Shown: piece by piece, positions 30,001 to 33,000 of the stretch | Layout: every line of letters begins with the position of its first letter | Position numbering within the stretch: position 1 is the stretch's first letter | NCBI GenBank assembly: GCA_963735805.1 | Contig: CAVTMK010000003.1 | Location: forward strand, 95,591-159,590 | Origin: an uncultured Verrucomicrobiae bacterium | Lineage (GTDB): Bacteria; Verrucomicrobiota; Verrucomicrobiia; Chthoniobacterales; UBA10450 | DNA: 64,000 bases | Reading direction: 5' to 3' | Program-made: the position numbers

Positions 30001-33000
30001 ATCTTCTCGATGACGGCGCTTCCTCTGCGGAACTGAATGAACTGTTTCGGGAAAAAAACTAAATAGCGATCGCTTTCGATCGGCGTTCACAACTTCGGGT
30101 TGGAATTCTCCCCCAATCAAGCCATCATCGTCGGATGAAAGTCTTAACCATTGTTGCCCGGGTCCTTCTTGGATTGATCTTCGTTTTTTTTGGTTCCAAC
30201 GGATTGCTGCATTTCCTTCCGATGCCACCCCTCCCGCAAGGTGTGACCGGTGAATATTTGCACTCGTTTTTCGCCAGTGGCTACGTTTACGTCATCAGCG
30301 GGTTTCAAGTCATTGGCGGCTTGCTTCTCTTAATCGGTCGCTTCGTTCCGCTGGGCCTGACAATTTTGGCCGCAATCATAGTAAACATTTGGGCGTTCCA
30401 CCTGTTGATGGCGCCCGAAGGATTACCGCCGGCAATCGTCGTCGCCGTGCTCGAACTGTTCCTGGTGTGGTCGTATCGCGATCGCTTCGCCGGAATTCTG
30501 CGGCCCTGATCTGGGACCATGGCTACTACACAAAGCAACGACAAAACAGCCGACGTGGTCGTTCGCGGCGACGCCCGCAGTTTCAAACAGGAGGTTGATG
30601 TAGGTAAACATCACGTTATCGCGGACGAACCGGAGAGCGCAGGCGGTAGCGATGCAGGGCCCGATCCATACGATTATCTGCTAACATCGCTCGGGGTTTG
30701 TACGTCCATGACGGTCGGCTTATACGCGCGTCGGAAGCAAATACCCTTGAACAACGTCACGGTTTCGCTCTCGCACTCGCGCATTTATGCAACGGATTGT
30801 GAGGAATGTGAAACGAAGGAGGGAATGCTGGACCGAATTGACGTTGAAGTCGAACTGACTGGATCATTAAGCGCAGAACAGCGCGCGAAGCTAATGGAGA
30901 TTGCCGGGAAATGTCCGGTTCATCGCACCCTCACATCGGAGATCAATATTCGCCTCCGGCCTGCTCAGAAGCCACCTGCCTCGTAAGCACTGCTGTAGCC
31001 GCCTCGCTGTGTCGAGGCGTGCGTATGGCATTGATCCGCCTCTTAGGCACGGCGACACTGCGCCGTGGCTACAGCGCCGGGGCCCACGACTACCTGCTAC
31101 AGCAAGCGCACCTGGAAATACGCGCGGGCAACTGGGATCACACGAAGAAATAACGGCTTTACGTCGCTATTTTGAGAGTCAGAATTAATTTCGGAGGGAT
31201 CAAACAGATCAACGGTTGCATCGAATAAATGAAATTCCTCGCGGTCCATCCCAGCTGCCTGATGTATTCGAAGATTTATCTTCGGCTCGAACCACTCGGC
31301 CTCGAACTTGTTGCTGCTGCTGCACGGCGCGCAGGCCACTCTGTTCGCTTGATGGATTTGCAATGCGAACCACACCAGAATTTCTTCCGCTTGGTCAAAA
31401 GCTGGCAACCGGATGTCATCGCGTTTTCGGTTAATTATCTCGCGAACGTCCCCGAAATCATCGATCTCGCCCGAGCTACGCGTGCCCTGTTGCCAGAAAC
31501 ATTCATCTGCATCGGGGGACACAGTGTGTCGTTTATCCCCGAAGAAATCTTGCGACACGGTGCGGGCGCCGTGGATTGCGTGCTGACCGGTGAAGGCGAA
31601 ACGGCGATTGCCGGTCTGCTCAATGCTCTCGGTCAAAGTCGGGAAAATCTGAAGAATGTTCCTGGATGTGTCACACTGAACCATCGCAACCCGCCGCCCG
31701 CGTTCGTGCATTCACTCGATGATCTCTTACCTGCACGCGACCTGGTTCAACATCGCCACAAATATTTCATCGGCCAGTTAGACCCGGCCGCTTCCATCGA
31801 GTTTAGCCGGGGCTGTCCGTGGGACTGCGTCTTTTGCAGCGCCTGGACGTTTTACGGACGCAATTACAGAGTAAAAACACCCGAATGCGCCGTCGAGGAA
31901 TTGGCGCAGATCCGCGAGCCCGGAATTTTTATTGTAGACGACGTGGCCTTCATTCAGGCGGAGCACGGAATGCAGCTTGGTGAAGCAATTGCTCGACGCG
32001 GGATCCGGAAACGTTACTACCTCGAAACACGTGGGGACGTGTTGTTGCGCAACAAAGAGGTATTCCAGTTATGGAAGCGGCTAGGCCTGAATACCATGTT
32101 CCTGGGCCTCGAAGCGATCGATGAAGAGGGATTAAAACGCTACCGCAAACGCGTGACGCTCTCTAAAAATTTCGAAGCACTGGAGTTTGCACGCTCGCTC
32201 GACATTTCGGTGGCTGTCAATATCATCGCCGATCCCGCATGGGACCGCGAACGGTTCAAGGTCGTGCGCGATTGGTGCATGGAAATCCCCGAGGTCGTCA
32301 ACATCAGTATTAACACGCCTTATCCCGGGACAGAAACATGGCACACCGAATCGCGTCGTCTCACGACGCGGGACTACCGCCTATTCGACATTCAACACAC
32401 TGTGTTACCAACCAAGCTGCCATTGCCGGAATTTTACAAGGAACTCGTCGAGACACAGCGCGTGCTTTCCCGCAAGCATCTCGGCTGGGAGGCGCTGCGG
32501 CACTGCGCACGGATCGTTGTCCGCCAGTTGCTTCGTGGGCAGACCAATTTCATCCGAATGCTTTGGAAGTTCGACAGCGTCTATAACCCGGAACTCCAAC
32601 TCGCCGATCACCGCCAACCTGTAAAATACGAAATCAGCCTGCCACCGCCTTCCGTTACCAGCGTGGAGCGAGGCGCGATGTACATTCACAAGAATCGCGG
32701 ACGAAGCGGACGACAAATCGATCATCACACGGAAGAATTTGTTAACGCAACGAGAATGGGCGTCGGCGATTGATTACACGGTCCGCGTGAAGAATAGAAT
32801 TGGAGGGCGACCGCTTCGGTTGTCGGATAGTTTGGCAGGCGAAGCGCCCGCCCTACAACTTTAATGGCTCGATGAGTGCGACGAGGAAGAAATCACCAAA
32901 GGCGCGTCGATGGTCTGGTGAAGTTACAAAGCATAGCAACGCACTCGATCTCGAGACGGACGTCTTCAGGCAAAAGGACCCACATCGCATTGCGCTGTCG

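Follow-up and report, generated by a model that had tools for sequence, protein, structure and literature searches.

The genetic definition of HpnR comes from Methylococcus capsulatus (Welander and Summons 2012, cited in PMC5462960 and PMC12583986). Combined with isotope checks, 3-methylhopanoids continue to serve as a tracer of aerobic methane oxidation. According to the accessible part of PMC5462960, hpnR was reported in Actinobacteria, Nitrospirae, and Acidobacteria in 2012, which was said to invalidate the methanotroph biomarker, and methylated BHPs were found in one of three cultures of Candidatus Koribacter versatilis. The available portion of PMC12324291 lists HpnR in Pseudomonadota, Desulfobacterota, and Actinomycetota and leaves Udaeobacter unmentioned. 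Among cultured hpnR-positive Alphaproteobacteria, most producers were less than 0.25% methylated (PMC12583986, in the sections available).

We analyzed a 64,000-nucleotide stretch of a Udaeobacter genome (the window). The genome assembly, G000, is 94% complete in four contigs and carries a single hpnR copy. Like Ca. Koribacter versatilis and Nitrospira, the organism would be a nonmethanotroph carrier, and Udaeobacter is not known to have intracytoplasmic membranes. A search with PF02461 (pmoA/amoA) gave no match, but it did not detect any control genome either.

Identity and setting of the Udaeobacter gene

The gene lies among the following features of the window.

30135 to 30509, plus strand: small membrane protein, conserved neighbor by synteny
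30519 to 30986, plus strand: OsmC-like gene (PF02566, synteny), upstream neighbor conserved in the window's clade, with no known hopanoid role
31229 to 32773, plus strand: hpnR, predicted cobalamin-dependent radical SAM hopanoid C-3 methylase, 514 aa
32800 to 33171, plus strand: DUF3175 gene (PF11373, 150 bits; synteny), conserved downstream neighbor, whose real start is probably the ATG at 32872
33313 to 34014, minus strand: creatininase-family amidohydrolase (PF02633), convergent and downstream

The hpnR open reading frame is intact from ATG to TGA. Its product matches the NCBIfam equivalog TIGR04367 with 872.5 bits against a cutoff of 650, over model positions 1 to 489 of 490, so that the call of a full-length HpnR in the first-pass annotation stands (other identifiers of the family are IPR027564 and K22704). 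The next-best NCBIfam family, BchE, scores 161 bits, below its cutoff of 481, HpnJ scores about 71 to 72 against 578, and no HpnP model is among the 18 NCBIfam matches of the protein. Pfam places a B12-binding domain at residues 15 to 130 and a Radical_SAM domain at residues 190 to 349, with the CxxxCxxC motif formed by C196, C200, and C203, all three invariant across 40 homologs. There are four PF02310 matches in G000, and HpnR is the sole B12 radical SAM protein among them. The nearest named relatives, at 85 to 95% identity, are records of Ca. Udaeobacter sp. or Verrucomicrobia, one of which is already named "hopanoid C-3 methylase HpnR [Candidatus Udaeobacter sp.]" at NCBI. Domain order, motif, clade, and the presence of SHC and HpnH in the genome are the same as for the HpnR family; the Udaeobacter host differs as a nonmethanotrophic soil member of the Verrucomicrobiota lacking CobS.

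A predicted structure model (mean pLDDT of 67.6) has among its best Foldseek matches to solved structures the B12-dependent, class B radical SAM enzymes MgmA, CysS, OxsB, TokK, and TsrM (E values of 1e-13 to 3e-11, TM-score of about 0.5). The modeled fold thus appears to be theirs, at 15 to 20% identity and with other substrates. A PDB sequence search returned three distant radical SAM enzymes and no HpnR structure. Each sequence test of HpnR membership places the product in the family, and we consider it very probable that the gene is an HpnR ortholog with C-3 methylase activity.

The gene order is kept in many independent Udaeobacter loci, where the neighbors are 62 to 93% identical, and the OsmC-like gene directly adjoins the DUF3175 gene where hpnR is missing (G072 and G079). 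The small membrane protein has no Pfam or NCBIfam match; we take it to be DoxX-like. Farther out, a REP-associated tyrosine transposase at 28500 to 29048 (plus strand; NF047646, 82 bits, just above the cutoff) occurs at or near the same site in only some relatives. On the other side, a conserved periplasmic binding protein at 35065 to 35994 (minus strand), 2.3 kb from hpnR, has a weak BtuF-type match (54 versus 234 bits) and could possibly serve in cobalamin or iron uptake. A promoter and terminator scan found no excess over shuffled sequences (2 versus 1.2 and 3 versus 3.3). In the loci examined from Udaeobacter and from a second Chthoniobacterales clade, hpnR shows no linkage to other hpn genes, and in that second clade no hopanoid neighbors were recognized by eye among the clustered ORFs. 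The same holds for the TIGR04367 family, where a position away from other hpn genes is described as usual (PMC12583986, available sections); the genomic context therefore says nothing on function.

Distribution and inheritance of hpnR

In the genus, hpnR is above the cutoff in 38 of 108 genomes and in 15 of the 32 of high quality, and a further eight of the 108 have partial or broken copies. SHC matches, by comparison, are found in 101 of the 108 (89 above the cutoff) and in all 32 high-quality genomes. An order-level sample gave hpnR above the cutoff in 34 of 401 genomes: G000 apart, these are five of nine Udaeobacter genomes, one of 62 other genomes of the family (G408), and 27 of 43 genomes of a second family, f7, in which three more partial copies bring the total to 30 of 43. 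None of the other 14 families in that sample had a hit above the cutoff, and in a phylum-level sample of 401 genomes G000 alone exceeded it. We infer that f7 corresponds to a second HpnR clade, about 71% identical, made up of records titled Chthoniobacterales. These larger samples point in the same direction as the earlier claims of a patchy distribution in the genus and of a second hpnR-bearing family; the claim that other genera of the Udaeobacter family lack the gene has to be corrected on account of G408. All 16 f7 genomes searched for shc have it, sometimes in several copies (at least three in G142).

Motif searches turned up two further kinds of locus. Some alphaproteobacterial and metagenome contigs have two or three tandem genes with the hpnR motif, about 1.6 to 2.7 kb apart (L190/L191, L234/L235, L418 to L420, and L575/L576). 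The motif also occurs in records titled as the archaeon Nitrosotalea and the cyanobacterium Aphanothece hegewaldii (L158 and L226), which may reflect misbinning or transfer.

We placed hpnR on an rpoB tree that holds 90 genomes of the genus, the other 18 of the 108 being omitted for a missing or split rpoB. Counting partial copies, the window's clade has the gene in 24 of its 29 genomes, a second clade in 14 of 29, and the remainder of the tree in three of 32. This pattern takes 17 changes on the tree, whereas 1,000 shuffles needed 30 on average and never fewer than 20. Distances of hpnR and rpoB are correlated (Mantel r of 0.86, 27 genomes), GC3 is 0.62 for hpnR and 0.60 for rpoB, and the median dN/dS of hpnR is 0.053 over 29 pairs. 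The conserved site, the tree following rpoB, and the dN/dS of about 0.05 support the reading of hpnR as a native gene of Udaeobacter under purifying selection.

Using the creatininase-family gene, which is found in 68 of the 108 genomes, as the landmark, we looked for the empty site in 20 genomes without hpnR (G098 being covered in part). Nine have a clean site with the flanks directly adjoining, three end at a contig edge, and the others are rearranged or unclear. Incompleteness of the metagenome-assembled genomes alone as the cause of the patchiness is rejected by these nine sites, and the gaps within the genus are real. Broken copies include an internal deletion (G089), a gene in pieces (G095), and a single frameshift (G106). 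The empty sites and the damage in G089 and G095 indicate that hpnR is dispensable; it is vertically inherited all the same. The direction of this history, gain versus loss, is our inference.

Two HpnR trees were built, with 150 rows (duplicates and 11 short or broken ones dropped) and 37 rows; neither the M. capsulatus sequence nor an HpnP reference is among them. The Udaeobacter-type proteins and that of G408 form one clade (support of 100) inside the HpnR family, in the company of Acetobacter, Nitrospira, and Methylobacterium oxalidis, with the outgroup at 31% identity. The node that would give the Udaeobacter clade and the second Chthoniobacterales clade a shared origin has a support of 47.

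A recent horizontal island is unsupported, given the congruence with rpoB, the GC3, and the conserved gene order. The chance that the contig comes from another organism through a binning error is negligible. Three basal genomes (G021, G065, and G008) carry hpnR copies like those of clade A, which may be transfers or misbinned sequences and lend that idea some substance. For the window, however, it is refuted by synteny, the same neighbors recurring in order in independent loci, and by the congruence of the hpnR and rpoB trees; moreover, hpnR lies on a 514-kb contig with a GC content of 54.1%, like the other three contigs.

Hopanoid pathway, cobalamin supply, and predicted product

The genome was said to have squalene-hopene cyclase and HpnH as well, and both are indeed present above their cutoffs: SHC at C2:792123-794000 of G000 (685 bits, cutoff of 431) and HpnH at C2:790741-792030 (384 bits, cutoff of 225), in the ORF directly before SHC. 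HpnH, which was searched in G000 alone, is 429 aa long and aligns with the 318-position model in two separate segments, suggesting an internal insertion. Of the two squalene-synthase-family genes, one is intact but below all specific cutoffs and the other is frameshifted. Across the genus, 35 of the 38 hpnR-positive genomes have an SHC match, and the remaining three are 75 to 85% complete.

An HpnG-like phosphorylase gene at C2:1310468-1311165 is split in the G000 assembly by a frameshift, possibly a sequencing error. Of 57 genus genomes, 54 have a match, and no match reaches the TIGR03468 cutoff (at most 111 against 187 in all but one match). In 151 genomes of the order, counted by hand, matches with an E value of at most 1e-20 occur in 63 of 97 shc-positive genomes versus two of 54 shc-negative ones, and in G227, G133, and G158 the gene adjoins shc. 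We read it as a divergent HpnG, judging from these sequence matches; scoring below the cutoff in each of the Chthoniobacterales genomes searched, it is likely missed by annotation. We had considered that Udaeobacter lacks HpnG and hence accumulates 3-methyl-adenosylhopane, a soil-marker lipid. This is rejected by the occurrence of the gene in 54 of 57 genomes and further countered by its tracking of shc across the order and its position next to shc in three genomes. Neither HpnI nor HpnJ was detected in G000 (best scores of 58 versus 310 bits and about 71 to 72 versus 578 bits, the latter match being HpnR itself), so the expected end products would be bacteriohopanetetrol (BHT) and its 3-methyl form.

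CobS is absent from all 57 genus genomes searched, with detection in nine of 14 controls, which makes C-3 methylation dependent on outside B12. A BtuB-like receptor, below the cutoff, is found in 36 of 36 genus genomes, and G000 has genes that read from sequence as B12-dependent MetH-like and mutase-like. The accessible text of bioRxiv 10.1101/053942 and PMC7343977 describes Udaeobacter as lacking B12 synthesis and importing B12, the former for U. copiosus, and the string "hopan" does not occur in the available text of either. Marine Nitrospirales are likewise described as B12 auxotrophs with hpnR (PMC10579370, available part).

We propose that SHC would convert squalene to diploptene, HpnH would add the adenosyl group, and the HpnG-like phosphorylase would remove adenine on the way to BHT, with HpnR methylating C-3 of ring A. 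By analogy with the family, the 4Fe-4S cluster would cleave SAM, the 5'-deoxyadenosyl radical would take the hydrogen from C-3, and the methyl group would come from methylcobalamin, itself recharged by a second SAM; this radical chemistry is itself described as proposed and not studied in detail (PMC13459092, available part). The main product would be 3-methyl-BHT without a cyclitol ether. It would form a small part of the hopanoids, varying with conditions and limited by the supply of scavenged B12, and, if M. capsulatus is a guide, would probably be favored in stationary phase or starvation. The nearest producers for comparison are Methylobacterium oxalidis, whose HpnR is 63% identical over the full length, and Acetobacter spp. 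(60 to 63%), both outside the Udaeobacter subclade. These identities lie in the range of the 66.7% stated in the first-pass annotation for the M. capsulatus protein. M. oxalidis makes 3-Me-BHT at 2.3% (PMC12583986, available sections) and also 3-Me-BHT glucosamine; in G000, by contrast, neither HpnI nor HpnJ has a match. The gene would have entered the lineage once or a few times, been passed down in two clades of Udaeobacter at an unchanging place on the chromosome, and been lost repeatedly. We give a probability of about 0.65 to this whole account, of an HpnR ortholog working in the organism's own hopanoid pathway, making minor, B12-limited amounts of 3-methyl-BHT, and inherited and then repeatedly lost.

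Two other explanations concern the activity of the gene product. HpnR might methylate another lipid or another position, such as C-2, as few members of the family are validated, which is said to limit the benchmarking confidence of the annotation (PMC13712982, available part), and the mechanism is at the stage of a proposal (PMC13459092). We hold this to be very unlikely, because the Udaeobacter sequence sits on an ordinary branch within the HpnR clade, the motif GCPWDCxFCSAWTFYG is common to all 78 reference HpnRs chosen independently of that pattern, and hpnR co-occurs with SHC. A genuine HpnR could also be effectively silent in soil, for want of B12 or under tight regulation, and leave no measurable 3-methylhopanoid; four of 12 hpnR-positive alphaproteobacterial cultures made none (PMC12583986, available sections), and the missing CobS, the reported lack of B12 synthesis in U. 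copiosus, and the repeated loss of the gene fit this picture. It is nonetheless improbable in our judgment, since a dN/dS of about 0.05 across the genus argues that the product is used often enough for selection. Three pieces of 151 to 251 nucleotides, 100% identical to the interior of hpnR, were also found in two metatranscriptome studies at a contig depth of about 4. They are a weak hint of transcription, as the runs were found with this same stretch and DNA carryover is possible; being contigs, they give no level or strand, and the absence of neighbor coverage is uninformative.

We return to 3-methyl-BHT made with scavenged B12 as the likely product of Udaeobacter HpnR. Of the earlier proposal that Udaeobacter makes 3-methylhopanoids, the genetic capacity is well founded, with a native, selected ortholog and a pathway around it; the lipid itself does not follow, hpnR being no guarantee in cultures. 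On balance, we lean toward the compound being made in soil at a detectable level.

Udaeobacter among the carriers of hpnR in soil

The novelty of the finding is narrower than first claimed. A host in the Verrucomicrobiota appears to be unreported so far, no report having been found in the literature searched (titles and the beginnings of abstracts, with subscription journals and bioRxiv supplements outside it), but carriers that are neither methanotrophs nor acetic acid bacteria were already reported in 2012 (PMC5462960, accessible part). In that account the acidobacterial gene comes from one genome only, whereas the Udaeobacter gene is fixed at one site in two clades.

That Udaeobacter and the second Chthoniobacterales family together form a major source, perhaps even the main one, of the 3-methylhopanoids in oxic upland soils seems unlikely to us. 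This suggestion draws on a phylotype accounting in prairie soils for as much as 31% of 16S sequences (bioRxiv 10.1101/053942, accessible text), on the presence of hpnR in most genomes of the window's clade (24 of 29), and on Udaeobacter-type 90% clusters with hundreds of members (655, 357, 271, and 206). However, a motif scan of metagenomes, neither abundance weighted nor limited to soil, gave at least 122 hpnR loci, and among the 122 matches listed only six are of the Udaeobacter type and three of the second Chthoniobacterales type, compared with 41 assigned by best hit to Pseudomonadota, 19 to Nitrospirota, 13 to Rokubacteria, nine to Actinomycetota, and seven to Acidobacteriota, labels that are rough outside the two Chthoniobacterales clades. 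Counts of assembled contigs would probably underrepresent an abundant, microdiverse group. In two motif scans of genomes, Verrucomicrobiota account for six of 121 and 13 of 123 loci; no title in either names Methylococcales, so these samples may undercount methanotrophs. More than half of the genus lacks hpnR, and per-cell hopanoid content varies by two orders of magnitude among species (PMC12583986, available sections). The word "major" in the first-pass annotation is thus not borne out; Udaeobacter would be one of several abundant nonmethanotroph soil carriers.

A still broader idea is that Udaeobacter and the second family contribute soil hopanoids in important quantities that have been overlooked, and that their hpnR clades set the 3-methyl-BHT background in oxic soils and soil-derived sediments. 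In such settings the 3-methylation index would reflect how much cobalamin is available and how starved the cells are, and not methane oxidation, because on the same reading these bacteria cannot finish B12. We regard this as speculative and unlikely in full. SHC is nearly universal in Udaeobacter, at 101 of 108 genomes, while a 2025 survey places Verrucomicrobia among the least prevalent sqhC groups (PMC12195314, available part). Udaeobacter may thus be an overlooked bulk source of soil hopanoids, and its SHC may matter more than its hpnR.

Since the nonspecificity of the biomarker is already accepted, Udaeobacter extends the list of sources and overturns no view. With a carrier in one of the most abundant groups of soil bacteria, soils and soil-fed sediments have a concrete nonmethanotroph background to consider, and judging from its genes Udaeobacter probably contributes to a lipid signal formerly taken for that of methane-eating bacteria. 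The presence or absence of hpnR by clade at one chromosomal site offers a natural comparison for the purpose of C-3 methylation.
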